Notes: generated by a model not told the origin, from the sequence alone. 53,093 nt of DNA, filler included, from Malassezia furfur (GCA_052055015.1; 2 parts of 2 records of this genome joined end to end with filler, not necessarily neighbours in it), one strand, 5' to 3'. Shown: positions 1-53,093, counted from the whole stretch's first letter. Made by a program: numbers and translations.

Positions 1-1167
1 CAGGCAGCACATCGGTCGTGACGTTCACGCCGAGCCCGCCCGCGACCTCGCCCGAGATGTCAAACACCCACTCGGACACGCTGCTCGCGTCGGGCAGGGA
101 GTTGTCGAGAGCGTCGCTCGGCAGTGTTTCGCGCGTGTCGTCGGACGCGTCGCGGCGCTCGCCCAGCAGCGCGCGCACGAGGTCCAGGCCGCCCGCATGC
201 TCGAGGAACGCCGTGTTGCGCAACGCATGCGCCGTCGCACGGTCCTCGGGGCGCTTGGCCAGGCACATCTCGACGAAGCGCGCAAATGCCACCGAGTGCT
301 TTCCGTCGCTGGTATCGACCTGCGGCGCATTCGCCTTGGGGATGAGAAATAGCGCGCGCATCGGGTGGTAAGACGAAAGCGGCGGGTGTCCATTGACGAG
401 CTCGAGCGCAGTGATGCCAAGCGACCAAATATCGGCGCGCGCGTCGTAGTGCGACTGCTTGATCACTTCGGGCGCCATCCAGTACGGCGTGCCCACGAGG
501 GTATTGCGCCGCGATCCGCGGTGCAGGAGCTGCGCTGCGACACCAAAGTCGGCTAAAGGTTAGCGTGCAACGTACCAAGCTTGACCTGCCCGCGATGCGA
601 CAGGAGCACATTGGCCGCCTTGATGTCGCGGTGGATGATGCCGTGGTCGTGCAAGTACTCCAGGCCCAGCACGAGCTCGCGGCAGATCACCGCGACCACG
701 GGCTCGGCGAGCGGCCCGACACGGCGCAGCAGCGCCAAGCACGAGCCGGCATCCATGAGCTCCATCACGACCCACAACGTGTACTGCTTCACAAAGCTGC
801 CATAGTAGCGTGTCACGCGCTCGCACGATGCACACTGGGCAAGGCTCGTAATTTCGCGCTGGATTTCAGAGAGGTCCTGCGCCTGCGTGGAATGTGCATC
901 GTCGTCCATGCACGACTCGAGGTGGATCTGTTTCACGGCGACGACCGTCGCGCTCGGGACGTGCATCGCTTCGTACACCTGCCCGAAACTCCCGCGGCCC
1001 AGGCGCCGCACGAGCGTGTACTGCTCCCACGGGCGCGGTGTGCCATGCGCCGGGAAGGGCACATGCGTATGCGTGCTTGTGTTTTCTGCTGCGTCCCACC
1101 GCGACGCGCTCTCGGTGCGCGAGCGACGACGCCGCGCCGCATCCCCCGCCTCCGGGTAGGCGGGCAT
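1..1167 (-). CDS. Ste20/GCK-family Ser/Thr protein kinase (3' end runs off the window)
   Basis: GRGSFG glycine loop, VAVK, HRDIKAANVLL. A 23-nt intron at 553-575 restores KLADFG, followed by RRNTLVGTPYWMAPEVI, the Ste20 signature. ATG at 1167 is the likely start. Confidence 0.9.
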
Positions 1168-1248
1168 GTGGAGAAGCCCAAGGGAGCAACACGGTGGTGG
1201 AGGTGTGCGAAGCAGGTCGTGTCGTATACTATACAAGGGGGAAAGGGC

Positions 1249-4319: not shown

Positions 4320-4366
4320 CATATATCCGGGCAAGGCATAGTGGTATCTCTAGTTGTGTTGTTGTT

Positions 4367-5366
4367 CTACGATGCGAGTGTCTCTTGCAACCAGGCAGCG
4401 AACAGCTGCGCAACGTGCTGCTCCGGCGCCGCATGCGTCAGGCCCAGGTCCTGGAACTCAGACTTGCTCGCATACACCCGCACAAACTGTCGGCGCAGCG
4501 TCTGGAGCCGGGCCGGCGTCGGAAACGCGCGGCCGGCCGGCAGCGTGAGCGAGACGGGAGCCAGGCCCGCGACCGCCAGCTGCATCGTGCCCTGCGGCGC
4601 GTTCGCACGCTGCTCCTGCAGTGCGGCCACGACGCGCTGCGTCACGCCATCCAGCAGCTCGAGGCTGTTGTTCGACGTTGCATGTCGCTGCGCCGTGACC
4701 GCCTTGGGCGCTTGGACCTCGGCCTGAGTCACAGCATGCCACAGGTCGTCGAGTGGTGTTGGCGACACATCGATGCCCGCGACGCCCTGCGTGGCCGTCA
4801 CGACAAACAGCGGGCGGTGCCAGCGCGAGGCCGGTGTCGGCTCTTCGAAGCGTGCGATCAGCTCGTCGAGGCTGCGTCAGTGCATCCGACATACCCCGTC
4901 GGTGTGTACGCATCAGCGGCGCCTGAGGCAATTCGCTCAGCATTCCATGTACGGCACAGCTCCGGCTGACACGCCGTGTATACCTGGCGTCAGAGCCCTC
5001 CCACGTACTGTCGCACACCGGATACCCAACTCGCGCGCAGCACACCATAGCTCGTAGCGATACCCCTTGATGTTGAGCCCCGCACCGCCATCCGCAAGTA
5101 CAATTGACTTGTGATCGAGTGCACGCCGCACGGCACTGAGATATGCGGCACGCGCACTCTTTTCGGTGCGTTGCGCTGCATAAGCCTCGTGAGGGGTACG
5201 TACAGTCAAACACCTGCTTCTCAGTATGCACGTCGTCGTCGCTCACGCGCACCACGCGTCCGAGGCTTGGCGACTCGGCGAGACGCGCCTGGAACGCGCG
5301 CTGTATCTCAGTTGAACGCGTTGTTCGGCCAGAACACGGCAGGCCTGTGACGATCACCAGCGCCAT
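4367..5366 (-). CDS. KTI12: Kti12 Elongator-associated P-loop protein
   Basis: MALVIVTGLPCSGRTT P-loop, NIKGYRYELWCAARE, RFEEP, LQTLRRQFV. Introns 5176-5203 (28 nt), 4984-5008 (25 nt) and 4872-4894 (23 nt) join the frames. Confidence 0.9.
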
Positions 5367-5438
5367 CGTGCACGTCGCAGGCAAGATGCCGCACCGTGCA
5401 GCAACCTCCACACCTTTTCTTCGCACGAAATTTTGAGC

Positions 5439-6644: not shown

Positions 6645-6645
6645 T

Positions 6646-9297
6646 CTACACGACTGTATACCTCCCACCCGTCGGTGCGCCGCCAATTTCCATGGATTGC
6701 TGCGCGCCCTCGATGAGCAGGCGCTTGATCTCGCGCACGGCGTCCTCGATGCGGTACTGCTCGTTGGACTCGATGAGCAGCGAGAGTTTGGGCGGATCGC
6801 CCGGCTTGGGCTCCTTCCCGCGGTCGTAGAACGCGCCCTTGCTGGTGATTGACGCACCCGTGGACTGGATGAGCATCGCCATGGTCTCCTTGTTGGTGAC
6901 GTTCCAGCGCGCACGCTGCGGGAAGTCGTTGATGGGCACCACCGCGTGGAAGTGCGTCGCGTCGGGGTCGCGCGCGCGCCGTGCACGCTCCATCGCGTCG
7001 TTCAGCGCGGCCTGTTGCCCCTCGCGTCGCGCGTTCGCCTCGGCATTGATGCGCGAAATCATCTCGCGCAGCTGCGCCGTGTTGGCACCGCCTGCACGCG
7101 CGGCGGCAATGCGTGCCATGTTCGCCTGGTTCTCGTCGCTGAAGTCGTACGAAAGCGGCACTTTGTTTTCGCGCACGGCCTCGGGCACCGCACCGGAGCG
7201 CACCTCGACGTCCAAGTCCATCGCACCGCCGCCCGCCTGGCTCGAGCGCGCGGCTAGCTCCGACATGCTCTGCGTACGGTCGTTGTAGGCCGACGCCTGG
7301 ATGCGCAGCACTTCTTTGCGCTCCGTGTCGAGGCGCGACAGCCCGCGTCCGCCAAACCCTGAGCGGCTACGCTGCGACATACCCCGCGCGACATTCGCCT
7401 TGTGCTGGATTACAAGCTCCTCGAGCTCAGGGGGAATGTCCACGTGGCTGTTTTTGAGCGCGGTCCGAATGTCTTTGGCGTAGCGGTCCTGCTCGGGTGT
7501 GATGAAGGTGATGCACGTCCCCCGGTTGCCTGCACGCCCAGTGCGGCCGGCACGGTGTACATAGTCTTCGAGGTGGCTCGGCACGTCATAGTTTACCACG
7601 AGTTTGAGCTGCTTCACGTCCAGGCCGCGTGCCGCGACTGACGTCGCGGTGAGGATCGGCACAATCCCCGCCTTGAAGTCGGAGATGATCGTGTCGCGAT
7701 CGACTTGGTCCTTGCCGCCGTGCAGCGACATGGTGGGGTATCCGCGGCGCAGCAAGTCGCGCATCAGCTCATCTGCCGCATCCTGCCGCTCCACAAAAAT
7801 GAGCGTGCGAGCATCCTCATCGGCATTGTACATCTGGCCCAGGACCTCGAGTAGCCGCCGGAACTTGGTATCCTGCGGGCGTACTTCAACCACCTGCGTG
7901 ATCTCGGGCGCGACGACGCTCTTTCCGCCGATTGTGATCTCAAGCGGGGCATGCTGGAGCATCTTGCGCGCCAACCCCTCGATTTGCTTGGGGAACGTCG
8001 CAGAAAAAAGCACTGCCTGACGGTCAGGGCGCACGTTCTCGATGATCTTCATCACCTGCGGCTCAAATCCAAGGTCCAGCATGCGGTCGGCCTCGTCGAG
8101 AACAAGGTAGGTGACGCGGCTAACGTTGGTTACCCGACCGCTGTTGGCACTGAGCAGGTCGATCATGCGCCCCGGCGTCGCAATCACTACCTCGGGCGAG
8201 CGCTTCATCTCGGCAATGTGCTCTGAGATCGGCGGGCCACCGTACACACACGTGCCACGGAGCCCAATCGCCTGCAGAAAGGGCTTGGCGTCGCGGAAGA
8301 TTTGCAGCGCCAGCTCGCGCGTCGGGGTCAAGATGAGCGCAATGGGCCCCTCACCGGGGCGCAGCGACCGCTGGTCCTTGACATGCCGGAACATGGGCAG
8401 TAGAAAAGCAATCGTTTTGCCAGAGCCTGTCTTAGCGATGCCGACCAGGTCGTGCCCGCTCATAATCGCCGGTATCGCCTGGCTCTGAATGGGGGTGGGC
8501 GACGCAAACCCGAGCTCTTTGATCACGTCTGCACAACTCACCGGCAGTCCACAATGCGACCACTTGGTGATCGGCTTGGGGCAGTCGACTCCGCGCACCG
8601 AGATGGCGTCCATTTCGTAGCGTACCTGATTCGCTTCCTCGTCCGACATTTTCGCGACCTCCTCCGGCTCATGATAGAACGACTTGCGGAACGGCTCGTA
8701 GTCCATTTTGGAGTGGTCCACGCGGGGGATAAAGTGCTGCTTCGGACGCTTGTTGGCGACGGCGAGGAGTGCGTCGGCATTGAAGTCTTCCCTGTCGTCG
8801 TCGTCGTTACGACGATCGTGGGCCACTGGCCCCTCCTCCTCGTCATCCGAGACCAGCTCACGCACCTCTTTCGATGGCTCGTCCTGCTCGACACGGTGCA
8901 CTTCAGTCTGGACCGACGACATGTATGCATCGAGCGGGTCGACGTCGTCGGTCGCGGCATCGTTGGGCGCCGTGTCGCGGCTCGTCGAGGCCACAGGGAA
9001 GCCCATGGATACGCGCGACTTAGGCTTCGCATCCTCCTCATCCTCATCCCAGCTGGAAAATACGCGCGCAGGCAACTTGGGCGCAGTGCGCGCGGCGGGC
9101 GTACGGAGTCCCAGCTTGGGCGCCTCAGGCGCCGGCGCGCGCGCCTTTTTGGGGGGCGCACCGCCTTCAGCCTCTGCCGCGCGCTTCTTTGCCTCCTGCT
9201 GCTTGCGCCATTCCTCTAGGCGCTGCTTTCGCGCACGCCGTTTTTCTTCTGCATCGGTTAGCGTACGCGCGGCTTCGGGCCCCACGTTGCCTTCCAT
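6646..9297 (-). CDS. PRP5: Pre-mRNA splicing DEAD-box helicase Prp5
   Basis: DPLD motif, Q motif (PTPIQSQA), AKTGSGKT, PTRELA, DEAD, SAT, HRAGRTGR, and C-terminal KH-like region INDFPQRARW. Start taken as MEGNVGP at 9297. Confidence 0.93.
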   Translation of the reverse strand: MEGNVGPEAARTLTDAEEKRRARKQRLEEWRKQQEAKKRAAEAEGGAPPKKARAPAPEAPKLGLRTPAARTAPKLPARVFSSWDEDEEDAKPKSRVSMGFPVASTSRDTAPNDAATDDVDPLDAYMSSVQTEVHRVEQDEPSKEVRELVSDDEEEGPVAHDRRNDDDDREDFNADALLAVANKRPKQHFIPRVDHSKMDYEPFRKSFYHEPEEVAKMSDEEANQVRYEMDAISVRGVDCPKPITKWSHCGLPVSCADVIKELGFASPTPIQSQAIPAIMSGHDLVGIAKTGSGKTIAFLLPMFRHVKDQRSLRPGEGPIALILTPTRELALQIFRDAKPFLQAIGLRGTCVYGGPPISEHIAEMKRSPEVVIATPGRMIDLLSANSGRVTNVSRVTYLVLDEADRMLDLGFEPQVMKIIENVRPDRQAVLFSATFPKQIEGLARKMLQHAPLEITIGGKSVVAPEITQVVEVRPQDTKFRRLLEVLGQMYNADEDARTLIFVERQDAADELMRDLLRRGYPTMSLHGGKDQVDRDTIISDFKAGIVPILTATSVAARGLDVKQLKLVVNYDVPSHLEDYVHRAGRTGRAGNRGTCITFITPEQDRYAKDIRTALKNSHVDIPPELEELVIQHKANVARGMSQRSRSGFGGRGLSRLDTERKEVLRIQASAYNDRTQSMSELAARSSQAGGGAMDLDVEVRSGAVPEAVRENKVPLSYDFSDENQANMARIAAARAGGANTAQLREMISRINAEANARREGQQAALNDAMERARRARDPDATHFHAVVPINDFPQRARWNVTNKETMAMLIQSTGASITSKGAFYDRGKEPKPGDPPKLSLLIESNEQYRIEDAVREIKRLLIEGAQQSMEIGGAPTGGRYTVV

Positions 9298-9366
9298 CCT
9301 CCGGGCGCGACCAGTGTGCGTGTGGAGCGACGAAAACACGCAATCGGGGGATCGGGTCTTTTGACG

Positions 9367-11333
9367 ATGGCCGAGGAGGACGGCGTGGCCGGTGGCTTTG
9401 GCACAGACGATTTTATCGCGTTCGACCTTGGCGAGGGCAGCGATGCAGAGCAGCCGGAAGAGCGCGAGCGCACCGTAAAGACGGTGGATGATGCAGTGCG
9501 TGAGCACGCGTCCGCGCGCAGCACCCCGTGGGCGACGCAGGTCGAGTGGCATCGCTACCGCAACGTCGCGGAAATGTACGTGAGACGCTGACGCAGGCTC
9601 AATGCCGAGGTGCGCACGTATGCGCAGTGGATATGTCCGACGCAAGAGGAGCATGCGTGTCGTATGATGGTCATCGAGTTGCTTCAGCGCGCGCTGTGTT
9701 CGGAATGGCCCGACGCCGAAGTGCGCTCGTTTGGCAGCCAGGACACGCAGCTGTACCTGCCGCAAGGGTACGTCGACTGTGATGGCTAATCCGCAGGGAT
9801 ATCGACCTCGTTGTACTGTCCAAGTCGATGGACCAGCGTCCGCGCGAAGCGACGTTGCGCAGCATCGCTGGCTGCCTACGTGCACATCGGCTTGCGGAGC
9901 AGATCCAGGTGATTGCGCGCGCCAAGGTGCCCATCATCAAGTTTGTGTGTCCCTACGGCCACTTTAACGTGGACATCTCGATCAACCAGGCCAACGGTTT
10001 GCAGGCCGCGCGTCTGGTCAACCGGTGGCTCGCTAAGCTCCCAGGGCTGCGACCGCTGGTGATGGTCGTCAAGCAACTGCTTCAGCAGCGTGCGCTCTCT
10101 GAAGTGTTCACGGGCGGGATCGGAAGCTACAGTGTGACGCTTCTCGTGCTCTCCTTTCTCCAGCTCCACCCCAAGCTGCAGCGCGAGGAAATCGCCGCGG
10201 AGCGCAATTTGGGAACACTGCTTCTCGAGTTCCTCGAGCTGTACGGCAAAAACTTTGGCTACGACGAGTGTGGAATCACCGTGCGTGGGCTCGGTGGTTA
10301 CTTTAGCAAACGTAAGCGCGGGTGGTTCGACGCGCGCAAACCGTTTATGCTGTGCATCGAAGACCCGCACGACGTCGGCAACGACGTCGCGAAAGGCTCG
10401 TTTGCCATCATCAGCGTCCGCTCGGCACTCGGTGGCGCCTTTGACATTCTGCAGGCGGCGCTGTGTGAGCGCGCAAATGATTTGCAATCCTTCCGGGCGC
10501 GACAGCGCGCCCTGCACGACGCGCAACAGCAGAACAAGCACACACACTTTGGTGATGCCGGCGACTCACGCCTGCATATCGCAAGCCAGAACAAGGAGCC
10601 CGAGAGTCTACTTGGCACGGTGCTTGGCGTGTCGCGCGAGATGATCAAGCGTCGGACCGAAATCAAAGAGTTGTACGAGTCGAACACGCTGCAAGAACGG
10701 CTCGCCGAGTACCCACCCGTCCAGCGCCCGAACGACGGTGAGATGCCGAGCGCCGCAGCCGAGTCCAGCGATGACGAGGCGGCGGCCAAGCGAGCCAAGG
10801 CCGAGCGTAAAGCCGAGCGCAAGGCCGAGCGTCGGGCACAGCGCAAAGAGCAAAAAGCGCTGCTGCGCGACCGGCGCGCCCAGGCCGACACGGCGGAGGC
10901 TGCACGCCAGGCGGAGCAGGAAGCCGAGGTGCGGCCGACCGACGAGGATTCGATTACCATCCATACTGCCGAGGAGCCCGTGCGCCGCAAGGCGAAACGG
11001 GGCGACGCCTCATCCGACGAAGACTCCAAGTACGCTGCATCCGCGCCGCCCGCTCGCAAACGCGCGCGCGACATGTATACGGCGCCGCCTGCCGCGGCCT
11101 CGGACGACTCGGATGCGGATTTAATCGCAAGCGATGCGCCGTTCGTTACCGAATCGAGCGACAGCGACGTGGCTGAGGCCCAGTCCGCCCCAGCGGCGCG
11201 CGCCCAAGGTGTGTCGATTGCAGGGCGCGCCAAGCGCGAACGAAACTCGACGCTGAGCAAAAAAGACCGCATGGCATTCTGGCACGCCAAGAGCGGGGCA
11301 GACGCCCCCAACGGCACGCCGAGCAGTCCCTAG
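9367..11333 (+). CDS. TRF4: Non-canonical poly(A) polymerase Trf4/Cid14 (TRAMP)
   Basis: After introns 9576-9596 (21 nt) and 9768-9796 (29 nt): FGSQDTQLYLPQGDIDL nucleotidyltransferase motif, ARAKVPIIKF, EVFTGGIGSYS, and PAP-associated IEDP. Confidence 0.9.
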
Positions 11334-11351
11334 TATGATACCCGTCCATGG

Positions 11352-12673
11352 CTATGAGGATGTCTGTGTTGCTTCGCGCTGCATCTCGGTCCATGCCTTG
11401 TGCAGCGCATGGACCCAATCGAGTGCAGACGGCTGCGTGCAGGATGCGAGGTGTCGCGCATGCGCCAGCACGGGCAGGCGACGCAAGGAGCGGCCAGACG
11501 CGCCGCGGCAAGCGTCGGCGAGGTCGAGCAGGGCCGCCGAGGCGCCCGTTGCCGTGCGCGCCTCTTGGTACGGAGCGAGCGGCTCTGGCTGCGCGAGTCG
11601 CACACGCATCAGCTCGGAAAGGCACGAGGCGAGGATACGGTACACGGCCTCGCTGCCCGGCAACCCAATGTATTGTCGGATATCGGCGCGGTCCAAAAAT
11701 GCAGCGTCGATGGTCTCGGACAGGTTGGACGTCGTCATGACTAGCACATTTTGCTTGTACTTGAGCTTGTCCAGCTCCGTGAGCAGTGCATTCACGACGC
11801 GGATTGAGTCAGATGGCTCGACACCAGCCGCCGCGGACGCGCGCGCCTTGGTCAGCGATTCGATTTCGTCGATGAGCACCACAACAAAGCCAGTCTCGTC
11901 CGCGAGGAGCTCATTGATCAGTTCAAACAGGCGGTGCACGAGTTTTCCTGATTCGGAAAACCACTTGGAAAAGAGGGAATGCGAGTTGATCTCGACGAGC
12001 TTGCCGTGAGTGTACTGCGCGCTGAGGCGGATGGCGAGTTTTTGCGCAAGTGCGCGACTGAGTGTCGTTTTTCCAGTACCCGGTGGGCCATGCAGCAGCA
12101 CCATCCGGTTGCATGTGATGATATTCGCGTCGATTCCGCTTGCTGCGAACTGCATCGTGGTATAGATGTAATGGAGTAGACGTGCCTTGACGTCGTCGTT
12201 GTATACAAGACTGCATGATAAGCGAATTGGCACGTACGTTTCCCAAACGCCGTCCAATGTGCGACTCGGGAGCTCGGTGAGCGTGGCCGCCACGCTGTTG
12301 TCTGTGCCCTGGCTGTCCGCGTCGCCGACGCCAAATTCATCGACGTTGTCGGTTGGGCATGGCCGATAAATGTGGATCTGCACAGGCATGTCTGATGTAA
12401 CGCATTTTGCGCCCTTGTCTTTCCATTAAGCGTGTCGACGTACCACTTTCGGCCACGTAGACGCGCTCGACGTCATCCAGCAGGTCCGTGTTGCTCACAT
12501 CGAGCCCCTGCTCCGTGGGGTAGACGCCTTTTTGCGCAACGAGCTGTGCGACTTCGCGTCGCACGTCCTCCTCATCACGCAGCGAGTCGTAACGCTGGCA
12601 TACCTCGACTGCGTAAGCGGAATGGCATACCATGCACGACGTCCGACGCGTCCGCCAACCCCACCGTGTTCAT
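11352..12673 (-). CDS. PCH2: Pch2/TRIP13 AAA+ ATPase
   Basis: NRMVLLHGPPGTGKT, EINSHSLFSKWFSESGKLV, IDEIESL, EPSDSIRVVNALLT. Introns 12609-12630 (22 nt), 12419-12443 (25 nt), 12211-12237 (27 nt). Confidence 0.92.
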
Positions 12674-12751: not shown

Positions 12752-13819
12752 CTACTCGTCTTCGTCGGGCACCTCGAATTCGTTCCCGTACGGCTTCGCC
12801 GTGAAGAACGTCGGGTCAAACCAGTTGACGCGGACGTAGCCGTCTTCTCCGCCGCTCGCATAGGCCTTGCCGGTCGGGTGGATGGCGAGCGTGTTGATGG
12901 GACCGAAGTGACCCGGAAGACGTGCGCATTCCTCCTCGAAGATTTTGTGCCAGAACCTGGACTCAAACTTGCCCTGACGTGCGCTGGTCGTCGTGACGCT
13001 CATGGCCTCCTGACCACCGCCGACAATCACGTAGGGCCGCGTCGGGTGCGCGATCGCCGAGTTCAGCGGTGTGTCAGTCATGTATGTCTTCTTCACGTCC
13101 AGGGTAAATGCGTCCAGGAGCTTGGACGACTTGTCCTTGCTGCTCGTAAGTAGGTATGTCTTGTCCCAGCCCAACTGGAGGTCCGTGATGGTTTCAGTGT
13201 GCGCGTCGGTGTGGTTCAGCTCGAGCTCGGCATCGATGCCCGTCTCCGGGTTCTCCGAGTCGTGACTGTACAGCGCCACCTTACCGCTCTCGTGGCCCGT
13301 AATGATATGCTGGTCGAGCGCGTCGAAAGAGGCGACAGTCGCCTTGGACCCCGAGAAGGTGATGGTGCGCATCGGCTCCGTGGACTGCTTGGTCCATGTC
13401 GCGGGGTCGCGGTTGATTTTAAAGACGCGGAGCGCACCGCGGTGGCCACTGCGCTCCTCGGTGATGCTGAGCACCTCAGAGCCGTCGCGGTTGAACTGTA
13501 CGCACTTGACGGCGGTGGGGAACTCCCACGTGTAGAGGCACTGTCCGGTCTGCACGTCCCAAAGACGCATTTGGTTGTCTGCGGAACCGGTGATGAGCAG
13601 TTTGGAGTTGTTGTCGACGTCGACAGACCACACGGTACCGTTGTGTCCGTTGTACGTGCCGAGGCGCTCGCCGTTGTGCGAGAACCACACGTTCACCACA
13701 TTATCCTTAGACACAGAGAACAGAAGATCACCCTCGCGGTTGAATTTGATCTGGTTCAGAGAACGGGTATGACCCGAGAGCACAATAGGACGCTAGGTCA
13801 GCCATGCCATACGCACCAT
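12752..13819 (-). CDS. TIF34: Translation initiation factor eIF3 subunit i (WD40)
   Basis: ATG, 24-nt intron 13793-13816, then RPIVLSGHTRSLNQIKFNREGDLLFS; GGGQEAMSVTTT; GHFGPINT; SGGEDGYVR. Confidence 0.95.
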
Positions 13820-40834: not shown

Positions 40835-42111
40835 TTAGGGAGCGAAGAGCTGCTCGAAGAAGGCAGGCGACGTCGTCGTGCGCGGCGTCTTCGTGTCCTT
40901 CTTGAGCTTGCCGTCGCGGCGCTGAGCCTGCTGGCGCAGCTCGTTGCGGATCGAAGCCTGCGCGTAGGGGTTGAGGCGGAAGAGAACAGCGCGGTTGCGC
41001 AGAGGGTTCTTCTTCTGCGTGAAGGGGCGCTTGGTCTGCTTCGGGCCGGCCGGGCGAACGACGCTCTGGATCTCGTCCGAGTTGATCAGACGCGTCACGT
41101 CGGGCTGGCTGATCTTGGCAGTGGGCAGGCGGAAGCCCGACTTGACCTCCGACGCAGCGTCGTAGGTGCCAAAGATGGTGTCCAGCTGCTTGAACGCATC
41201 CTCGGTCCAGATCACAAAGCGGCCGAGGTGGCCACCGGGGGCGAGCTGGAGGAGGTTAAGGCTGTGCACGCTCGCGACCTCAACACCGGGGATGTTGCGG
41301 AAGGCCTTCACAATGCCGTTGTCCTCGTTGTAGATCACAAGAGGGCCGCGGCGCTGAGTGTGACGGCGGTTGCGCAGCTTGCCAACACCGGCGCGGATCT
41401 TGCGCGAGTTCGAGACCTTGATCACGTCGTTGTACGCGTTCAGGGCCTTGAGCACGGCAACCGCCTCCTTGGTCTTGGTGTACTTCTCGACCTCGCTCGA
41501 GACGATCAGGGGAACCTCCTCGATCTCCTCAATGCGGTGGCCACGAGCGAGCACCAGCGAAGGGAGAGCAGTGGCAGCGAGCGCCGAGGCAGTCGCGTAG
41601 CGGCGCTGGTTCTGGTTAGTCTTGATGAACCAGCGGCGCCAGACCTTGGTGGGGTTGAACATGTGACCGCCACGGGCCATGTTACCGAAGGCAGCCTGGC
41701 CGGAGCGGTGCGTACCACCACCGCCGACACGGGGGATACGGGCCACAGCACGACCGGTACCCCACGACTCAGCCGAGGTCTGGTGACCAGCCTTCGACGA
41801 GACGGCGTAGGGCTGACGCTTGTTCTTAGCGAGGTTAGCTGGAAAAGGTGTCAGTATCGTGTCCTCCAAGACGGCGGCGACATGCGGCACGAGTGTTGCA
41901 AGCGTAGAAATGTGCGTGTACAATCCACGGGTCGCCAAGCACATTTGTGTCACTCATGTGCACTCGCGCCGGCACGTCGATTTCAGTACGTACAGTGGAT
42001 AGCCTCGACGACATCCGGGCGGATAGGGGCAGTGAACACTGCCGGAAGAGGCAGCGAGCCCGTAGCCGCACCGTCAACTCCTCGAACGTTCACAGTAGGA
42101 CGAGCAGCCAT
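40835..42111 (-). CDS. RPL4: 60S ribosomal protein L4
   Basis: MAARPTV...APIRPDVV; 155-nt intron 41839-41993; [39 protein letters not shown]. Possible 32-nt 5'UTR intron at 42132-42163. Confidence 0.97.
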
Positions 42112-43558: not shown

Positions 43559-45051
43559 ATGACTCGGCGCGTGTTCGTGGGAGGCATCGTAACGTCCAAG
43601 AGCATTTCAGAGCTCCAGGTCATCGAGCATGGGATCCTAGGCGTGGATGCAAACGGCGTCATTGCCTTTATCGAGGACCTGGAGAAGCTCGCAACCGACG
43701 TTGCGGCTTATCTCAAGACGCACGGTTGGGAACAAGGCACCGAGGTCGTGCAGCTTGAAGATGGGTCGTTTGTGTGCCCTGGATTCATTGATACCCACAC
43801 GGTACGTGCCTCGCCCAGCTGACGCCATGTAGCACGCGCCGCAACTTGTGCGTTCACGAGGCTGACCTTGCAGGCAAACACCGGGCGCGGCATGCAGCTG
43901 CAGCTGCTCGACTGGCTCGAGGAGCTCACGTTCCCCGAAGAGTCCAAGTTCCAGGACGTGGAGTACGCCAAGGCAATGTACGCAAGTGCAGTCGATCGTT
44001 ACTTGCGGTCCGGCACGACGACGGCGTGCATCTATGCGACGTTGCACCTGGAGGGTAGGTGGTGCCTCACTAACGCAACCAGCTACCAAGGTGCTTGCCG
44101 ACATCTGCCATGCGCGCGGCTTCCGAGCGTTTGTCGGCCGGTGCCAAATGGACCGCAATTCGCCGGCCATCTGCGTGGAAGCCAGCGCGAGCGAGTCGTG
44201 TGAGCACACCGTGCAGTTGATCCACCACTGCCGGGAGCTCGCTGGGAAGGACGAAGCGCCGCTCGTACAGCCCATCCTGACCCCGCGCTTCGCCATTAGC
44301 TGCTCGTCGGAACTGCTCGCCGGCATTGGCGAGCTCGCCAAAGCGTACCCCGACAGTGCGTGGCCTACTGCTGACCCTAGTCCCTTTGCAGACGCACATT
44401 TGCGAGAACAAGCGCGAGATTGAGGCGACGCGCAACTTGTTCCCCGAGCGCAGCTCGTACGCGGACGTGTACGACCACTATGGGCTGCTCAACGAGCGCA
44501 TGATCTTGGCGCATGCCATTCATTTGAGCGACGCCGAGATCCGGCTGCTGCTCGAGCGCCGATGTGGGCTGTCGCATTGCCCAACGAGCAACATGAACCT
44601 GAACAGCGGTCTCTTCCGCCTGATGGACCTCGCGAAGCGTGGCATTAAGATCGGGCTCGGCTCCGACATCTCGGGCGGGTACGCCGTGGGCCTGTTGCCA
44701 GTGCTGCGCGAGGCCAGCACCATCACGCGCGTGCTGGCCATGCAGGATCCCGCGCAGGCGCCGGCGCCGCTCGAGGCGCTCTACTTCTTTGCGACACTCG
44801 GCGGCGCACAGGTGTGTGGGCTGGAGAAGCGGGTGGGCATGTTGGCGCCCGGCTACGAGTTCGACGCGCTGGTCGTCCGCACCTCCGCCCGTGCGGGCGA
44901 CGCGCCCGTGAACCCCAACCTGTTTGTGCGCGAGCAAGAACCGCTGGCGTCCCTGTTTGAAAAGTGGCTGTTCTGCGGCGACGACCGCAACATTGCCACG
45001 GTGTATGTCCGCGGCCGCCCGGTGTGTGGTGCGGTGCCAGGACGTGCGTGA
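43559..45051 (+). CDS. GUD1: Guanine deaminase
   Basis: PGFIDTHTHAPQ assembled across a 15-nt exon, LLDWLEELTFPEE, TPRFAISC, QTHICEN, LAHAIHL, HCPTSN, GLGSD, GDDRNI. Introns 43802-43832, 43848-43873, 44055-44082, 44356-44380. Confidence 0.92.
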
Positions 45052-45092: not shown

Positions 45093-47118
45093 CTATGACA
45101 CTTGCTGCGTTCGCAGCGGCATGGCGAGTGCGTCGAGGTCGCCGACACTGACCTCGTGCACATGGCCGCGGAACACGTAGCGTACATACAACGACTTCTT
45201 TTCGCCGATGCATGGGTCGAAGAACCCGACGAGTTTGGACTGGGTCAGTGTGTGTACCTACCTTGGACCGCCCCGCAGGGATCACCAGCTGGCTCTGGCT
45301 CACGAGCATCTGCAGCGGCACACGCACGTCCCACCACAGCGGCTGGTTCTCGGAAAAGACGCCGTGCGGCACATCGATGGGCCGCGCCACGAGCGCTAGC
45401 AGCTCCGTCTTGTTCGTGCACGCCTCCGCAGCGACCGGCGTCGGCGGCGGGAAGTGGTGCTTGGCGCCGTAGCACGCCTGCACAATCACCACGCCCTGCC
45501 GGTCAAACTCGATTTCGGCACGCTTGAGCGCCTGGCCACGCAACAGCTCGCGCGTCTGTTCCGCCGAGACGCGGCGCTGCTCGATCGCGCCGAGATTGTC
45601 GCGGCGCACCTTGGCGACACGCTCGGCATGGATGCGCTGCCGCCGGGGTACAAAGTAGAGGTAGTGCGACAGGGCGATGACCGCCGCCGGCACCATCGTC
45701 GCGGCCGCCACCAGGTCCGCACGGAACGTGGGCGAGAGCGTGATGGGCAGCACGATACGCTGGCCCAGGCGCGACACGCGCACCTTGAACTGCACGCCCG
45801 AGACCAGGCCGCAGTCCATGCCGAGCATCACGCGGATGTTTTCCGTGACGCGGCGCTCGCCGTTGGTGAACACGGAGAAGCCCGTGCCCGTGCCGAGCAC
45901 GATGCCGCTGCGGATCAGGATGCCGCCGAGGATGCGCATGCTCCAGTCGTAGCCGACCGACAAATCCACCTCGGAGAGCGTCGTCTGGAACGTCCAGCCG
46001 GGCTGGTTCGGCTCCTGCTTCGTGACACCGACGATGAGCGCGCCCGTGTCCTGCAGCACGGCCTCGCCGCCGCGGCCAGCGCCCCAGGGGCCGATGGTAT
46101 ATGCGCCCGTCTTGTACGACGAGAAGCCAGTGAGCGTCGACGTGCTCGACAGGCGCTGGCCCCACGTCATCGTCACCGACGGCGGTGCCGCCAGCGTCTG
46201 GGCCACCACCGCATACGTAAAGAACAGGTTGTCGTCCACCGTGTACTGCCCCTTGGACGTGAGGATGTGCGGCTTGAGCAGCGTCGCACTCAGCTCGGAA
46301 AAGAAGTGCGGGCTCCAGTGCGTCTTGACCGTGCCGATCAAGTTGCCGCCGCCCATCCCGCCGCGGCTCATCATCTGGCCCGAGAGCGACACGGCCGTGG
46401 TGTTGGAGGTCTGCATCTCGAAGCTGTGCTTGCCGACGAGCTGCGTGCAGTTCACTCGGTCCAGCCGCTCGCCGAGCGTCAGCGGCCGCACCGGGCGCGG
46501 GCGCAGCGGCGTCACGACCGGCGCAGGCGTCGGCGCGAACAGCGAGCTCGCATCGATCGACGCCACAAACTCGCCGCGCGACTTGACCAGCCCCTCGGCG
46601 TCCGCGGCTTGCCGCAGCCGCGCCTGCCGCTCCATCTCGGCGCGCAAATCGGCAGGAGTTTGGCCAGGCACCGTGAGCGACCAGCTCGACTGCAGGCCCG
46701 CCTCGCCAAAGTGGTCATATACGGCCCGCTGCTCGGTATTGCTCAGCACCTCGTACGCTTTTTGGATGTCGCGGAAGGCGTCTTCGGCCATCGCCTTGTG
46801 CCGCGGGTCCGGATGTTTGTCGGGGTGGAAGGCGACTGCGGTTAGCACACGCGGTACGCACCCGCCAGTGTTTTGTACGCATCGCGGATCTGCTCCTCGG
46901 TCGCATCCTTGTCGACATTCAGCAGTGAGTAGTAACTCCGCGCCTCGGCATGCGTGTCTTCGGGCTCGTCGGTGTGCGCGTCACGGAACGGCGTGCCGCC
47001 AAACAGCGGCTCCTCGTCCGATGGTGGTGCGGCGCGTGCAGTGTCTGTGTGAGCATGAAGAAGCACAGCACGGGGACGTACTGTGCAGACGAAGGTCCGC
47101 GTCCATACGAGCCGACAT
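45093..47118 (-). CDS. DnaJ-domain protein, DNAJC11-like (DUF3395 C-terminus)
   Basis: YYSLLNV...FHPDK J-domain; C-terminal DVRVPLQMLV...GFFDPCIGEKKSLYVRY. Introns 47045-47081, 46836-46861, 45240-45261. Confidence 0.85.
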
Positions 47119-47428
47119 CCCCGGATGGTCCGTGGCGGTCGCAGCCGTAGGTGTGGAGGTGAGCAAAATTGGGCCAAATTGGAGAGGCTCACCGCAAGAT
47201 GCCTGCGGCCAGGTCGGCAGCCCACCTGGCTGTCCACCACACCGCGCCGCGCCGCACACAGACCCGCTCCGCAAGGCCTACTACAGTCCCCATAGATGCC
47301 CTATGTACCCCTTCCGCCACCGCGACGCGTCCGCCGCGCAGACCGCACACACACCGCGCTCGAGCCATTGGGCACATTTGCAATTAATCCAAGCATCGTC
47401 GCCGCCGTCGTCTCCACCGCACTCCAAC

Positions 47429-47829
47429 ATGTCTGAAGCGTCGCCGGCGCAGACCGCTCACGAGCCCACCGAGCAGGCATCGGGCGCGGGCACCGACATC
47501 AAGTCGGGCAGCCCGAACGACTTCCTCAAGGGTACGTACCGCTGCGCACCCTGGGCGGCGTGGCATCGGCACGGATCGTGTACTAACCCACGCAGGTGTG
47601 ACTGGGAAACGGGTCGCTGTGCGGCTCAACTCGGGCATCGACTACCTCGGGACGCTGTCGTGCCTGGACGGCTACATGAACATTGCCATGGAGGAGACGA
47701 CCGAGCACGTGGACGGCCAGCTCAAGAACCATCTCGGGGACGCCTTTATCCGCGGCAACAACGGTACGTCGACGCGCGCGCGCCGCGGTGCTAACGCCAG
47801 TGCTCTACATCACCGCCCTCGAGGGGTAG
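47429..47829 (+). CDS. LSM6: U6 snRNA-associated Sm-like protein Lsm6
   Basis: SPNDFLKGVTGKRVAVRLNSGIDYLGTLSCLDGYMNIAMEET...GDAFIRGNNVLYI; introns 47532-47595 and 47764-47800. Confidence 0.9.
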
Positions 47830-47921
47830 GCACATAGCCACGATCTTTGTGACATAGAGCTGCACACACGTACGGCGCGTCATCCGGCGCGCCGCTGCAT
47901 GCGCCCATGACAACGCGCGCG

Positions 47922-47939
47922 CACACACACACACACACA
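47922..47939. repeat. (CA)9 microsatellite
   Basis: Directly visible between the LSM6 and QCR6 3' ends. Confidence 0.9.
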
Positions 47940-47990
47940 TTTCTACGGTTCATGCAGTTGAGCAGATCGTTCGGGGTAACGCAGACGCCA

Positions 47991-48705
47991 CTATGCCAGC
48001 TTGGGGAACAGCTTCCTGTGGTTAGACCCGGCTTTGGCCGTCGTACGTACGGCGCAGTGCACTCGAGCGCACAGTGAGCAATGTGGACTGATGGTTAGCA
48101 TGCGCGGCGCGGTCTTTCGACATACAGCTGCGGTTAGTACGACGCGCACGGTGGGCGACCTACAATTCTTCCGTGCAGTCCTCGTGAGGGAATTGGACGT
48201 CGCCCTTGGTGACGCGCTCCTGGCACTCCTCAAAGTGGTGACGAGCGCTGGCGCAGGGGGCCGACTTTTCGCACGCTGCGCGTTAGCATCGCGTGCCAAT
48301 GTGCGCCGCGTACCTTCGTAAATCTGGGGCATGATCTAATCCATGCAAGCCAAGCGCGAGCAGCACGCGGCGCGCGAGGTCAGTATCCGGGGCTGCATCA
48401 TGGCGCAGTACGTACGTCCTCCGGCTCCTGTCGGTTAGTACGGGTGCGGTCGCGGCGTTACGTACGTCCTCGTCCTCGTCGTCCTCTTCCTCTTCCTCTT
48501 CCTCCTCGTCTTCGCCCGCCTCGTCGTCACCCGACTTCTCCTCGTCGTCGCCGTCGTCCTGGAGTCAGCATTTCGGCGCGCGCGTCGTGCGTACCTCGGC
48601 GTGCGCCACGGGGAAGAGCGAGGCGAACCAGCTCGTCGGAGCCGACTCCTCAACGGTCGTAGCAGAGCTCGTGCCAAAGTTCGTCAGGGCAGACAGCAGG
48701 GACAT
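47991..48705 (-). CDS. QCR6: Cytochrome b-c1 complex subunit 6 (hinge protein), 8 exons
   Basis: Exons 48705-48595, 48558-48466, 48427-48416, 48335-48314, 48275-48164, 48127-48126, 48087-48051, 48015-47991 total 414 nt (137 aa): acidic tract, then EPEDIMPQIYEACEKSAPCASARHHFEECQERV...DCTEEFFHIAHCALECTAPKLFPKLA. Confidence 0.88.
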
Positions 48706-48898
48706 GGTTTAGAAGCACAATTCGCGGTAGCTGGCGCTGAAGCGATACTCGCTGAGAAATTCACTTTCCCCCCGCTGACGGCCAGACCCCCGAACTGTCC
48801 CGAATTACCAAGCAAATGCACGTGACGTTTGTGGAGGCTCGGGGATTATCAGGCCACGTATCAGTGAGCCGAGCACCGCGTGGCTTCGGCTGGCTGCA

Positions 48899-48904
48899 TA
48901 TAAA
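48899..48904 (+). promoter_or_regulatory. TATA box upstream of Mala f 2
   Basis: TATAAA about 50 nt upstream of the ATG at 48950 in GC-rich context. Confidence 0.55.
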
Positions 48905-48949
48905 GCCGGGTGGGCCGTGCTCACAGCTTCATCTTCCACGACAATCATT

Positions 48950-49559
48950 ATGCCTGGTGTAGGTACCGCGAAGTGACACGCATGCTGACCATCAGGATCC
49001 TACTGCTACTGCCAAGGGTAACGAGATCCCCGACACCCTCATGGGCTACATCCCCTGGACCCCGGAGCTCGACTCGGGTGAGGTGTGTGGTATCCCCACC
49101 ACCTTCAAGACCCGCGACGAGTGGAAGGGCAAGAAGGTTGTGATTGTCTCGATCCCGGGTGCCTACACCCCCATCTGCCACCAGCAGCACATCCCCCCGC
49201 TTGTGAAGCGTGTGGATGAGCTCAAGGCCAAGGGTGTCGACGCCGTGTACGTCATTGCGTCGAACGACCCCTTCGTCATGGGTATGTACTGCTCTGTCAT
49301 TTCTTTATGCTAACCGACAGCTGCCTGGGGCAACTTCAACAACGCCAAGGACAAGGTCGTCTTTGCCACCGACATTGACCTGGCCTTCTCCAAGGCTCTC
49401 GGCGCGACGATCGACCTGAGCGCCAAGCACTTTGGTGAGCGCACGGCCCGCTACGCTCTGATCATTGACGACAACAAGATTGTCGACTTTGCTTCGGACG
49501 AGGGCGACACTGGCAAGCTCCAGAACGCGTCGATCGACACGATCCTCACCAAGGTCTAA
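48950..49559 (+). CDS. Mala f 2: Prx5/Ahp1-type peroxiredoxin, allergen Mala f 2
   Basis: MPGDPTATAKGNEIPDTLMGYIPWTPELDSGEVCGIP...PGAYTPICHQQH...DTILTKV; introns 48959-48995 and 49282-49320. Allergen identity is from recall. Confidence 0.9.
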
Positions 49560-49899
49560 AATGGCGCATGTGCGTTGTGTGACCACTACCTAAAGGGTCC
49601 GTAGAGTTCCAAGTCAAGTCGTATATTTTTTTTTTACAGGATGGTGTGTACTGCCACCTGCCTTTGAGCAAGGCGTGCCAGGGGCTGGGGCGATGCGCAT
49701 CGATGGAGCGCCCCGCCCCATCGGCTCCCGCGCCGCTGGACCGGAGTGTGCACGGGCACGGGACGCCGGCGCGTGGGGTGAAGCATGGAGAAGTTTCGAT
49801 GGCTTAGTCAGCGTGATCAGGCCGGGACGGTGCACGGACGTGGGCCCTGCGCTCAAAAGGGACGGGGCGGCGCACGGAGCGCCGACACCTACGTCCAAC

Positions 49900-50435
49900 A
49901 TGGTATGTGGCGCGCGGCGCTCACACAGTCTGCGGAAATTGGCTCGACGATCCCCAACGCTACGTTTGCATACGTGCCGTACAGCCCCGAGCTCGAGGAC
50001 CACAAAGTGTGTGGCATGCCGACGAGCTTCCAGAGCCACGAGCGCTGGAAGGGCAAGAAGGTGGTGATTGTCGCGGTGCCCGGTGCGTTCACGCCGACGT
50101 GCACCGCGAACCATGTGCCGCCGTACGTGGAAAAGATCCAGGAGCTCAAGAGCAAGGGCGTCGACGAGGTCGTGGTGATCTCGGCGAACGACCCGTTCGT
50201 GCTGAGCGCATGGGGCATCACCGAGCACGCCAAGGACAACCTGACGTTTGCGCAGGACGTCAACTGCGAGTTCTCCAAGCACTTTAACGCGACGCTGGAC
50301 CTGTCGTCGAAGGGCATGGGCCTGCGCACCGCGCGCTACGCGCTGATCGCGAACGACCTCAAGGTCGAGTACTTTGGCATCGACGAGGGCGAGCCGAAGC
50401 AGTCGTCGGCCGCGACGGTGCTGAGCAAGCTGTAG
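49900..50435 (+). CDS. Mala f 3: Peroxisomal Prx5/Ahp1-type peroxiredoxin, allergen Mala f 3
   Basis: ATG, 26-nt intron 49903-49928, then SAEIGSTIPNATFAYVPYSPELEDHKVCGMP...PGAFTPTCTANH...VLSKL (PTS1). Allergen identity is from recall. Confidence 0.9.
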
Positions 50436-50446
50436 TGCCGTTCTAC

Positions 50447-53093
50447 TTAGTCAAACAATCGGGTATAGTCGCGTTGGTCCATGGGGTCCGATTCCGCGAT
50501 CGCGCGCTCCGGGTCGCTGGCGTTGCGCGCCTCGAGCTGCGCCTTGAACCGCTCGACGTGGTGCAAACGCGTGACCCAATCTGTGTGAGTGCAGGGCGGG
50601 ACGTACTGCTCGTGTAGGGCACCATCGATTCGCCCGTATCGAGGTAGATCTGGCTCATGAGGTCGCAGTGCATCGCCAGGTTGCACACGAAGCGGGGGAG
50701 CGCATCGAACGAGACGAGCTTCCCTGCGCCGACCGCGGAAAAGTCGGGCAGCCCGGGCCGCCGCTGGAGTTCGACGAGGACTGCGGTGTGAGTGCGGGGC
50801 GCGCATACGTACAAAACATGTTGTCCGTCACCTCGTACGCCTCGACGCCGTTGCGCAGGATCGAGTGCGGCGAGATGACAATGTTGCAGAAGTTGAACTG
50901 GCTCGCGATCGTCCCAAACTCGTACGGCCGGTTCGACTCGTTGAACACAATGTGCACCCAGTCGTTGCCGATGAGCGCCTTCTTGGCCGCGTGCGTCGGG
51001 TCGTTGGGGCGGTTCGGCATGAGCGTCGCGGTGTGGAAGACGATCTGCTTGATGTTGTCCTTCCAGATGTATGCATACTTCCCGTGCTCGTCCTGCTGCC
51101 GGTCGAGGCCGTCCGTGTACACGTCCTCTTGGCCCCGCAGCGGGATCAAGTCGCCCAGGCGCGACAAAAACTTCATGTACGCCGACGACCCAAACGTGTT
51201 GCTCAGAATCTCGCGCTCCGTCTGCTGGTGGAAGCCGACGTACAGCACACCAATCTTGTGGAAGTCGTACACGGGCGTCAGGTCGATCGCGCGCAGCAGG
51301 CGGTCGGTCGCCGCATTCGACGGCAGCCGCAGCGGCGCCTGGTCGACGAGCATGTCCGGGTACGCGCTGAGCTGCAGCGCCAGGAAGGTGGGGAACGCGT
51401 CGGTGTCGCGCTTGCGGGGCGGCGCAGCGCTGGCCGCTGGCGTCGCGCTGGACGGTGCGGCGCTGGACGGTGCGGCGCTGGACGGCGCTGCGCTGGACGG
51501 CGCTGCGCTCGCAGCCGGCGCTGCACTCGCAGCCGGCGCGTCGGTGGCGCCGGGCGCTGCCGCCGTGGGCAACGTGGGCGCCTCAGCCAGCGCGTCGGTG
51601 GCGTCTTCGCCCGTGTGCGCCGGCACGTCGGCGGCCTGCTCGGCGGTGCGCGGCGCAAGGGCCGCCGCATACGCCTTGCGCTCCGCACTCTGCTTGTCCT
51701 TGTAAAACGCGGGGTGCGTGAGCGGCGACGGCGCGAGGCGCGCGGGCTGTGCAAGCGCGCTGGCACAGCGCGTGCGCGTGAGCGTGAGTGGGAGGAGATC
51801 GGCCATGCGCTCCTCGTCGACGAGCGTGTTGGACGGCTCGTTCTCGATCTTGGACACCATGGACGTGATGCCCGACGGGCGGCGGATGAGGATCTCGACC
51901 CAGCCGTTGCGCTTGAGCGCGGTGAGCGTCACGAGGCCCTTGCCCATGAGCCACGTCTGCGACTCGCTCGCGTGTCCCGGCGCGGCGCGGCGCGGCGCGT
52001 TCGGCTGCGAGTTGGTCACGAGGAAGCGGATGAGCGAGCGCGTGGGCTTCGACTGCGCGTTGCTGTACGTGAAGCGCGCGAGGAAGTCGAGGCACACAAA
52101 CGTCTGGTCGGTGAGCTTGTCGCGCCCCTCGTTGGCGAGCATGAGGCCGCGCGTGATGTGCGGCACGTGCTTGGGCCGCTCGGCGAGGCGCAGCGTGAGG
52201 AACCACTGGGCGATGGTGCTGTACGCGAGCATCATCACGTACTGCGAAAGCGAGAAGCGCGCGGGGCTCGAGCGCATCGCCTCGCGCGAGCTCGCCTCGG
52301 AGCTGTGGTGGTACTGGATGTACTGCAGCGCGATGCCAAACACGCGCTTGTAGTCCGCCTCGGTGAAGTTGGCGTACGTGCCCGGCAGCCCGCTGATCTC
52401 CACGAGCAGCTCGAGGATGTGCACGCTCGCGGCCATCGACGACATGATCGTCGACAGCTTCATCAGGAGCGCCGGCACGAGCCGCGTGAACGACTTCGGC
52501 AGCTCGTAGCACGCGACCACCAGCGCACGCACGCACGGCTGCGCGGTCGTCTGCGACTTGGTCAGGCCCGCCAAAAACGCCTCGAGCAGCGCGTCGTGCT
52601 GCGCACGCGACAGGCACCGCCGGTAGCTCACCAGCACGGTCAGCGTCGCGTACAGCACCGCGTACATGTCGGTGCGCTTCACGTCGTCGGGCAGCAGCAG
52701 GTTGGGGAACTGCCGCTGCTGCAGCAGCAGCGTGCACAGCAGCTCACACAGCGCCGCGACCTGCTCGCGCGCGTGCGGGCCACAGAAGCAGTGCTTGTTC
52801 GTGAGCTGCGCGGGGAGGTGCGTGATGATGTACGACACCACGTCCCAGTCCGCCTCGCTCTGCAGCAGCCCGATCAGCACGCCCAGGTACTCGGACGTGG
52901 GCAGCACGAGCGCCTCGTCCGCACTCGGCGCCGCCTCGGGCACCTCGTCGCCGACGTGGTCGTGCGCATACACGCGCCACAGCATGCTCGGCCACTCTTC
53001 GTCGGGCAGGTCGACCGCGACACGCTCGGGCACGCGCCACAGCGCGCGCGGCTCGGGCGGCGCCGTGGCGGTGCCTGCGCGCGGCTTGGCGCC
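50447..53093 (-). CDS. TSC2: Tuberin/Tsc2 Rheb-GAP (5' end outside the window)
   Basis: DWDVVSYIITHLPAQLTNKH and SVHILELL tuberin domain, IRRPSG, Rap-GAP domain (FHKIGVLYVG..Q, IVFHTATLMP, KKALIGND); intron 50781-50812. Confidence 0.92.
51438..51540 (-). repeat. Coding tandem repeats in TSC2 linker (15-nt APSSA and 18-nt APAASA units)
   Basis: Four near-copies of GCGCTGGACGGYGCN on the + strand plus two CTCGCAGCCGGCGC units. Confidence 0.8.

Follow-up and report, generated by a model that had tools for sequence, protein, structure and literature searches.

Ultra-short GT-AG introns and tandem introns around micro-exons in a 53-kilobase stretch of Malassezia furfur DNA

A 53,093-nucleotide (nt) stretch of Malassezia furfur nuclear DNA (62.5% GC), referred to here in its entirety as the window, was examined for the tiny spliceosomal introns that an earlier note had reported throughout its genes. 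Judged from the DNA and its homologs, that observation is correct, and the segments are real ultra-short U2-type GT-AG introns. The explanation that we hold with high confidence is that they are ordinary spliceosomal introns of M. furfur, shrunk almost to bare splicing signals. All 11 segments listed as examples run from GT to AG, with a GTRNG donor continued by T or C and a CTNAY branch motif 5–8 nt before the 3′ end. The coordinates and gene strands given for them hold for all 11 (five on the plus strand, six on the minus strand). Support is strong for eight and moderate for two (12609–12630 and 18331–18353), and one was mis-delimited (35476–35497).

A census of the window was assembled from spliced open reading frame (ORF) models, exon-by-exon profile coordinates, and manual reading of difficult regions. 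It yielded 47 introns in approximately 33 genes, with a median length of 28 nt and a mean of 33.8 nt. The range of 21–29 nt claimed in the note applies to 28 of them (21 nt, two introns; 22, 23, and 24 nt, four each; 25 nt, three; 26 nt, five; 27 nt, one; 28 nt, two; 29 nt, three). It does not apply to the other 19, which comprise 15 introns of 30–40 nt (31, 32, 32, 35, 36, 36, 37 three times, 38 three times, 39, 39, and 40 nt) and four longer ones (52, 64, 80, and 155 nt). The minimum of 21 nt occurs twice, and no shorter intron was found in the census. Junction-level homology to Pfam profiles, orthologs, or solved structures supports 25 introns, and an intact protein of a recognized family requires a further 14. 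Retention would cause a frame shift in 36 introns and an in-frame stop in nine, hence in 45 of the 47 together; only the introns at 12211–12237 and 24534–24557 are both in frame and stop free. Unspliced ORF calls from relatives run through the same intron positions. Two other approaches were rejected. A naive gene finder (codon log-odds plus any GT..AG pair, with a flat penalty) placed 11 curated introns exactly and mis-delimited or missed most others, and it was replaced by profile coordinates. Open frames on both sides proved too permissive as an intron criterion at this GC content.

Chance expectations were drawn from 200 dinucleotide-preserving shuffles of the window. A loose donor, branch, and AG pattern of up to 40 nt was observed 55 times, against 15.8 ± 4.1 in the shuffles (maximum 28). 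A strict pattern of up to 32 nt was observed 25 times, against 1.08 ± 1.01 (maximum 5). Reading frames were compared using a codon-usage model trained on seven intron-free genes of the window, with the best frame scored in both 75-nt flanks of a candidate. Splicing joins the best frames for all 11 introns of the earlier list and for 41 of the 47 curated introns. When only lengths not divisible by three are considered, frames are joined for 30 of 36 curated introns, compared with 385 of 2,297 control GT..AG pairs.

The splice signals are close to uniform. GT and AG ends are present in 47 of 47 introns, but this was a selection criterion and hence is not independent. Every donor begins with G1 and T2 and has G at position 5 (all 47); A occupies position 3 in 41 introns (G in six), and T occupies position 6 in 44 (C in three). 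A CTNAY branch motif is present in 46 introns (CTGAC in 16, CTAAC in 14, CTCAC in eight, CTTAT in three, CTTAC in two, CTGAT in two, and CTAAT in one), and the remaining intron has GTTAC. The branch A lies 5–10 nt from the 3′ end in 45 introns (5 nt in 16, 6 in 12, 7 in eight, 8 in five, 9 in three, and 10 in one) and 12 and 44 nt from it in one intron each. The base before the terminal AG is always a pyrimidine (C in 41, T in six).

Spacing within the shortest introns is tightly bounded. Across the 31 introns of up to 32 nt, the distance from the donor G to the branch A is 15–23 nt and never falls below 15. Both 21-nt introns are exactly 15 + 5. In the TRF4 example the branch A is at position 16, as had been claimed, and in both the donor hexamer and the branch heptamer, the pairing regions of the two sites, are separated by a gap of ~4 nt. 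Within Prp5/DDX46, an 18-nt decoy (8017–8034) with a full set of signals (a donor, CTGAC, and CAG) is plainly coding sequence and is matched residue by residue in human DDX46. A second 18-nt option, formed by an inner CTCAC..AG within the KTI12 intron 5176–5203, was rejected as a misfit to the frame. The two minimal introns and the two unused 18-nt decoys, all from one 53-kilobase window, suggest a lower limit near 21 nt.

Ten of the 12 introns of 35–40 nt lie within positions 47000–49400 (DNAJC11, QCR6, the Sm/LSm gene, and redoxin gene 1), giving two length classes in the window. The branch motif CTAAC is used by nine of these 12 and by four of the 31 introns of up to 32 nt, a comparison that is confounded by gene, as six of the 12 belong to QCR6.

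Micro-exons in guanine deaminase and QCR6

The guanine deaminase gene (plus strand) has a 31-nt intron (43802–43832) and a 26-nt intron (43848–43873) on either side of a 15-nt micro-exon (43833–43847). The micro-exon has five codons and supplies the second His of the HxH metal motif. Both introns are placed by spacing, which fits three of three solved guanine deaminases only with the 15-nt exon. The exon 1 match ends at residue 85 of 3e0l_A, 104 of 2uz9_A, and 100 of 6oh9_A, and the exon 3 match resumes at residues 94, 113, and 108, respectively. The 8, 8, and 7 residues between them are supplied exactly when the micro-exon is included. Structure matches for exon 1 are weak (E-values of 0.03–0.19), yet these are the top three. 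A single 72-nt intron was rejected, as it leaves five residues missing relative to all three solved homologs.

QCR6 (minus strand) codes for the cytochrome bc1 hinge protein and is interrupted repeatedly. A 36-nt intron (48559–48594) contains an in-frame stop, and the M. japonica protein P0251 runs on without a break there. A 38-nt intron (48428–48465), called from the ORF model and the reading of the region, is followed by a 12-nt micro-exon (48416–48427) encoding EPED. The Sympodiomycopsis protein P0253 has these four residues in the equivalent position. The adjoining 80-nt intron (48336–48415) takes as its acceptor the first AG after the branch motif, 44 nt downstream of it. After a 38-nt intron at 48276–48313, position 10 of the UCR_hinge profile falls on the first full codon of the next exon. 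Introns of 36 nt (48128–48163) and 38 nt (48088–48125) were placed by region reading together with alignment to the homolog P0256, and a probable 2-nt exon (48126–48127, CT on the minus strand) lies between these two complete introns. With a final 35-nt intron (48016–48050) removed, the spliced product aligns to the end of P0256.

Among canonical solutions, only the 2-nt exon stays in frame; no other canonical site pair does so. Its layout is an acceptor CAG, two nucleotides, and a donor GTATGT, which may or may not correspond to the acceptor with a directly following regenerated donor of recursive or ordered splicing. Including the exon restores the conserved C-terminus: it fills the 21 UCR_hinge profile positions still outstanding (45–65) with 21 residues and gives an alignment that reaches the last-but-one residue of P0256, with a score of 220 against 144 and 127 for the alternatives. 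The score of 144 belongs to a single 76-nt intron, which changes the frame and was rejected. Within the 90%-identity cluster of P0256, the proteins P0250, P0255, P0258, and P0262 read through the same point into non-homologous sequence, and their read-through residues are compatible with the same acceptor-CT-donor arrangement. P0256 alone in its cluster has the joined form, without the two introns. This pattern may reflect a spliced transcript beside genomic copies. The annotated NCBI QCR6 of M. japonica (P0251) ends exactly where the 2-nt exon would lie, and the last third of the hinge domain is missing from it.

Genes of the window and their other introns

Pfam scans of all 429 stop-free stretches of at least 70 codons identified the approximately 33 eukaryotic genes, which lie on both strands. 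They include a kinase, KTI12, Prp5/DDX46, TRF4, TRIP13, eIF3I, PP2C, TAF8, a P-type ATPase, SIR2, SIN1, aconitase, thioredoxin reductase, RPL4, guanine deaminase, DNAJC11, an Sm/LSm protein, QCR6, two redoxins, and tuberin. The best protein matches of TRF4 and SIN1 are from Malassezia species, and the annotated M. furfur TRR1 is 100% identical to the TRR1 of the window. The window was assigned to the nuclear DNA of M. furfur because its closest proteins are from Malassezia and because of this TRR1 identity. Two runs of 44 N (26520–26563 and 26576–26619) fall inside the SIR2-family gene, and its C-terminal half was left out of the gene model. An Rfam scan of the window gave no match, small nuclear RNA genes included, and a tRNA scan of it was likewise empty. 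A metagenome scan with eIF3I returned five loci, the best 61%–62% identical; these are too distant for an orthologous Malassezia locus and were not used.

Two genes carry introns of exactly 21 nt. The TRF4/Cid14-type poly(A) polymerase gene (plus strand) was aligned with MAFFT to proteins of six Malassezia species, Ustilago trichophora, Schizosaccharomyces pombe (Cid14), and Saccharomyces cerevisiae (Trf4). Its 21-nt intron (9576–9596) contains an in-frame TGA and coincides exactly with a seven-residue gap in nine of nine orthologs. Its 29-nt intron (9768–9796) separates positions 55 and 58 of the MTPAP-like_central profile, and seven of nine orthologs are continuous across it. In SIN1/Avo1 (minus strand), the 21-nt intron (31403–31423) also contains an in-frame TGA, and the annotated M. 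brasiliensis N-terminus equals the spliced product; the conserved N-terminal stretch after this intron has no ATG of its own. SIN1 has two further introns. One of 26 nt (29186–29211) lies between SIN1_PH profile positions 6–32 and 44–102, in agreement with the M. brasiliensis protein. The other, of 25 nt (29298–29322), leaves that protein continuous and its nested 19- and 21-nt donors unused, and four unspliced ORF calls from relatives run through it.

The mis-delimited example is in the thioredoxin reductase gene TRR1 (minus strand). The note had given a 22-nt intron at 35476–35497; the intron is instead 40 nt long (35476–35515), with the same acceptor and the donor GTACGT. The annotated M. 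furfur TRR1 (333 amino acids, 100% identical) equals the 40-nt model, and the 22-nt reading, which adds six residues present in none of the 19 relatives inspected, was rejected. Nested donors with a common acceptor occur at three sites, namely 35476–35515 (22 or 40 nt), 29298–29322 (19, 21, or 25 nt), and 25491–25519 (22 or 29 nt). Homology selects one donor per site, and minor use of the others is possible.

Several other introns fall between consecutive segments of a protein profile. The 23-nt intron of a STE20-like protein kinase (553–575, minus strand) separates Pkinase profile positions 1–139 and 139–262; its removal restores the DFG motif, and its retention shifts the frame. In KTI12 (minus strand), the 28-nt intron at 5176–5203 lies between profile positions 1–45 and 51–100, with five residues between them. 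The exon preceding the 25-nt intron at 4984–5008 ends at profile position 100, and the ORF also supports this intron. The exon after the 23-nt intron at 4872–4894 starts from position 130, and the full ORF of 307 amino acids is obtained only if this intron is spliced. In PP2C (plus strand), exon 1 ends at profile position 44 before a 29-nt intron (14231–14259) that the ORF supports. A 22-nt intron (14392–14413) precedes exon 3, which starts from position 97, with 49 residues for the 52 profile positions between. A second 29-nt intron (14950–14978), with its splice signals, is required by the ORF of 414 amino acids. In the SIR2-family deacetylase (plus strand), profile position 2 is the first residue after a 22-nt intron (25498–25519), whose removal restores GAGIS, and a 23-nt intron (25660–25682) separates positions 2–37 and 46–95.

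TRIP13/Pch2 (minus strand) has a 27-nt in-frame, stop-free intron (12211–12237), at which the solved TRIP13 structure 6lk0_A has a nine-residue gap exactly in place. A 52-nt intron (12392–12443, or 25 nt at 12419–12443) joins the frames and has two in-frame acceptors. After a 22-nt intron (12609–12630), the first residue of the next exon is position 9 of the TRIP13_N profile. The second in-frame, stop-free intron, of 24 nt, is in an Rdx-family gene (24534–24557, minus strand). Its removal puts the CxxC motif beside the preceding strand; if it is kept, Rdx profile positions 5–74 are stretched over 102 residues. In TAF8 (plus strand), retention of a 23-nt intron (18331–18353) causes a frameshift, and its removal gives an ORF of 415 amino acids. 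A weak Bromo_TP match (positions 42–74) and residue 72 of human TAF8 lie just past the junction, and a search of exon 1 against solved structures gave no TAF8 match before it.

The remaining guanine deaminase introns (plus strand) are of 28 nt (44055–44082), between Amidohydro_1 profile positions 56 and 73 with 16 residues for 16 positions, and of 25 nt (44356–44380), between positions 147 and 150. In the DNAJC11-like gene (minus strand), a 22-nt intron (45240–45261) separates positions 91 and 92 of the DnaJ-like_C11_C profile, and a 26-nt intron (46836–46861) separates DnaJ positions 25 and 28, with two residues between them. The Sm/LSm gene (plus strand) has a 64-nt intron (47532–47595), with LSM profile position 7 at residue 2 of the next exon, and a 37-nt intron (47764–47800), which the ORF supports and before which the exon ends at position 60 of 66. 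The tuberin/Rap-GAP gene (minus strand) has a 26-nt intron called from the ORF (50581–50606) and a 32-nt intron (50781–50812) at Rap_GAP profile position 129 on both sides, the second match being weak (E-value of 0.08). Ribosomal protein L4 (RPL4, minus strand) has an ATG exon joined to the Ribosomal_L4 ORF across a 155-nt intron (41839–41993), by far the longest in the window.

Some introns adjoin start codons. A 24-nt intron (13793–13816, minus strand) directly follows the ATG of eIF3I; it contains an in-frame TAG, and position 2 of the EIF3I profile is the first after it, in keeping with the ORF. A 26-nt intron directly follows the ATG of redoxin gene 2 (49903–49928), and a 37-nt intron follows the third codon of redoxin gene 1 (48959–48995); both are weak calls from signals and ORF. 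Redoxin gene 1 has a further intron of 39 nt (49282–49320), at Redoxin profile position 79 on both sides. The two redoxin (peroxiredoxin-like) genes lie in tandem at 48950–50435 on the plus strand and have 177 and 169 codons. The pair probably resembles Mala f 2 and Mala f 3, two allergens of M. furfur whose cDNAs have been cloned. Other weak calls are a 24-nt intron in a HlyIII/PAQR-family membrane protein (17099–17122, minus strand; signals and ORF extension), introns of 24 nt (23381–23404; signals, in-frame stop, and ORF) and 32 nt (24034–24065; signals and ORF) in a gene for a secreted-type protein of no family (plus strand), a 39-nt intron in an acidic protein of no Pfam family (28262–28300, plus strand; signals, in-frame stop, and ORF), and a 37-nt intron in the DNAJC11-like gene (47045–47081, minus strand; signals and ORF start).

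Alternative readings and a possible mechanism

Several points weigh against reading all of these segments as ordinary introns. All 47 were inferred from DNA and homology, and for eight of them signals and an ORF are the sole basis. Because the motif seeded the catalog, the motif frequencies are partly circular; introns with weak signals or in untranslated regions may also have escaped it. The frame test failed for six of the 47 introns. These all flank exons of up to 15 nt, at which the 75-nt flanks of the test run into neighboring introns. The choice between the two TRIP13 acceptors (12392 or 12419, to 12443) is ambiguous, an ATG overlapping the donor at 12609–12630 would permit an unspliced start, and a single 130-nt intron skipping the 12-nt exon of QCR6 is possible.

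One alternative is that some segments are not constitutively spliced, which we consider possible but doubtful. The introns at 12211–12237 and 24534–24557 would be retained in some of the mRNAs, and retention does keep the frame open at both. The solved TRIP13, however, has its nine-residue gap exactly at the first of these. The segment at 12609–12630 would be coding, in line with the in-frame ATG at its donor. The intron at 35476–35515 would be spliced in a minority of cases from its 22-nt donor, and nested donors do occur at 35476, 29298, and 25491; against this, the six extra residues of thioredoxin reductase are absent from all 19 relatives, and at the SIN1 site the 25-nt donor is the one that agrees with the M. 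brasiliensis protein.

An adapted spliceosome or assembly route, as the note proposed (for example, one with lost or truncated U1, U2, or SF3b parts), might bind a donor and a branch site only ~4 nt apart. This would supplement the reading as ordinary introns, and we judge it unlikely. The gap of ~4 nt in both 21-nt introns is in its favor, and the lack of any intron below 21 nt, with the two unused 18-nt decoys, suggests a steric floor. However, Prp5/DDX46, the one U2-associated factor in the window, is gap free against human DDX46 over the 140 residues compared. The accessible text of a 2026 survey (PMC13644364) likewise reports functional, conserved spliceosome parts in myxozoans (median intron of 22 base pairs [bp]) and Stentor (15–16 bp). 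The idea is a conjecture for which no paper on Malassezia splicing factors was found, and a special spliceosome need not be invoked. The Prp5/DDX46 ortholog, a U2 small nuclear ribonucleoprotein branch-site helicase, is a large DEAD-box gene without an intron (6649–9933, minus strand).

It is extremely improbable that the segments are chance GT..AG pairs among the long spurious ORFs of a GC-rich genome, or that the frameshifts come from assembly errors. The 429 stop-free stretches do mean that open frames on both sides say little alone. Against this reading, the strict motif far exceeds its frequency in the shuffles, and all 25 junction-supported introns agree with independent profiles or proteins to within a few residues. 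A donor, a branch motif, and a YAG would not accompany every random indel, and relatives from other assemblies show interruptions at the corresponding positions.

As the sequence shows, each intron consists of a GTRNGT donor, a CTNAY branch motif, and a YAG acceptor 5–10 nt past the branch A. Recognition would take place across the intron (intron definition), relying on strong and near-invariant signals, and the acceptor would be the first AG past the branch point, without a polypyrimidine tract. Because the recognized unit would be the intron, exons could be arbitrarily small (15, 12, and probably 2 nt), and neighboring introns would be removed one after another because their signals overlap. 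From this arrangement we infer, rather than observe, all three: intron definition, the first-AG rule, and ordered removal. The chances appear about even that Malassezia splicing operates at a hard floor of 21 nt (donor to branch A, 15 nt; branch A to acceptor, 5 nt) and purely by intron definition, which would allow introns to lie 2, 12, or 15 nt apart. The 2-nt exon of QCR6 would then be conserved in the genus, and overlap between the donor of one flanking intron and the acceptor of the other (36 and 38 nt) would impose an order on their removal.

Relation to known short-intron systems

Ultra-short introns in Malassezia are already known and are not a discovery, as the earlier note had recognized. 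The curated annotation of M. sympodialis has 5,350 introns with a mean of 30 bp, 99% of them supported by RNA sequencing (PMC5389616, Table 2). For M. restricta the average is 37.2 and the median 30.0 (PMC9241646, Table 1), and annotation of that species used minimum intron lengths of 20 and 15 (PMC6473144). A review also states that Malassezia genes contain very short introns (PMC7426719). These are introns of the same kind in the same genus, and the median of 28 and mean of 33.8 in the window compare with published values of ~30. According to the parts of these reports available to us, the M. sympodialis and M. restricta annotators lowered the minimum intron length to 10–20, and the same parts give length statistics but are silent on splice-signal geometry, any lower limit, and micro-exons. 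A literature search, with subscription journals outside its scope, found no paper on splice-signal geometry, spliceosome components, or micro-exons in Malassezia.

Malassezia genes are broken up by gene callers and read mappers run with default minimum intron lengths. Two of the nine TRF4 orthologs, annotated in M. yamatoensis and M. vespertilionis (P0002 and P0009), miss the stretch next to the 29-nt intron. These gaps and that of QCR6 P0251 are likely annotation errors caused by tiny introns or exons. Genes of M. furfur have been annotated with RNA sequencing for introns, and both transfer DNA (T-DNA) insertion and CRISPR tools exist for it (10.1101/638429). The species is a workable system for studying the minimal donor-branch spacing because it is culturable, can be modified with these tools, and has introns of ~21 nt with explicit branch sites.

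The short-intron trait seems little known outside Malassezia genomics. The median of 28 nt, from one 53-kilobase window, is below the 30-nt mark of ultra-short-intron genomes. The exceptions below 30 bp named in the accessible portion of the 2026 survey (PMC13644364) are ciliates, microsporidia, and dicyemids, and Malassezia is not among them. As described in the same portion, Stentor (15–16 bp), myxozoans (median of 22 bp), dicyemids, and microsporidia likewise have GT-AG introns below 30 nt and keep a canonical spliceosome. Their length distributions are narrow and close to the physical minimum, as in the window. The minimum of 21 nt in the window is not a record. Malassezia differs in being a free-growing basidiomycete yeast and in having a strong, explicit branch motif, in contrast to the reduced sites reported there for myxozoans and dicyemids.

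The possible 21-nt floor may be new here, as may the tandem introns, which are set apart by exons of 15, 12, and probably 2 nt. This tight geometry and these tandem introns are the parts that merit follow-up. Intron-poor eukaryotes, in the sections available of Irimia and Roy 2008 (PMC2483917), share the strong donor and branch signals and the short, fixed distance from branch to acceptor. Plant micro-exons of 1–15 nt are often misannotated, according to the portions available of PMC8831610 and PMC12409088, and tiny exons are missed by annotation here as well. Compared with the plant cases described there, the flanking introns in the window are only 26–38 nt long, so that one intron's donor overlaps the acceptor region of its neighbor.

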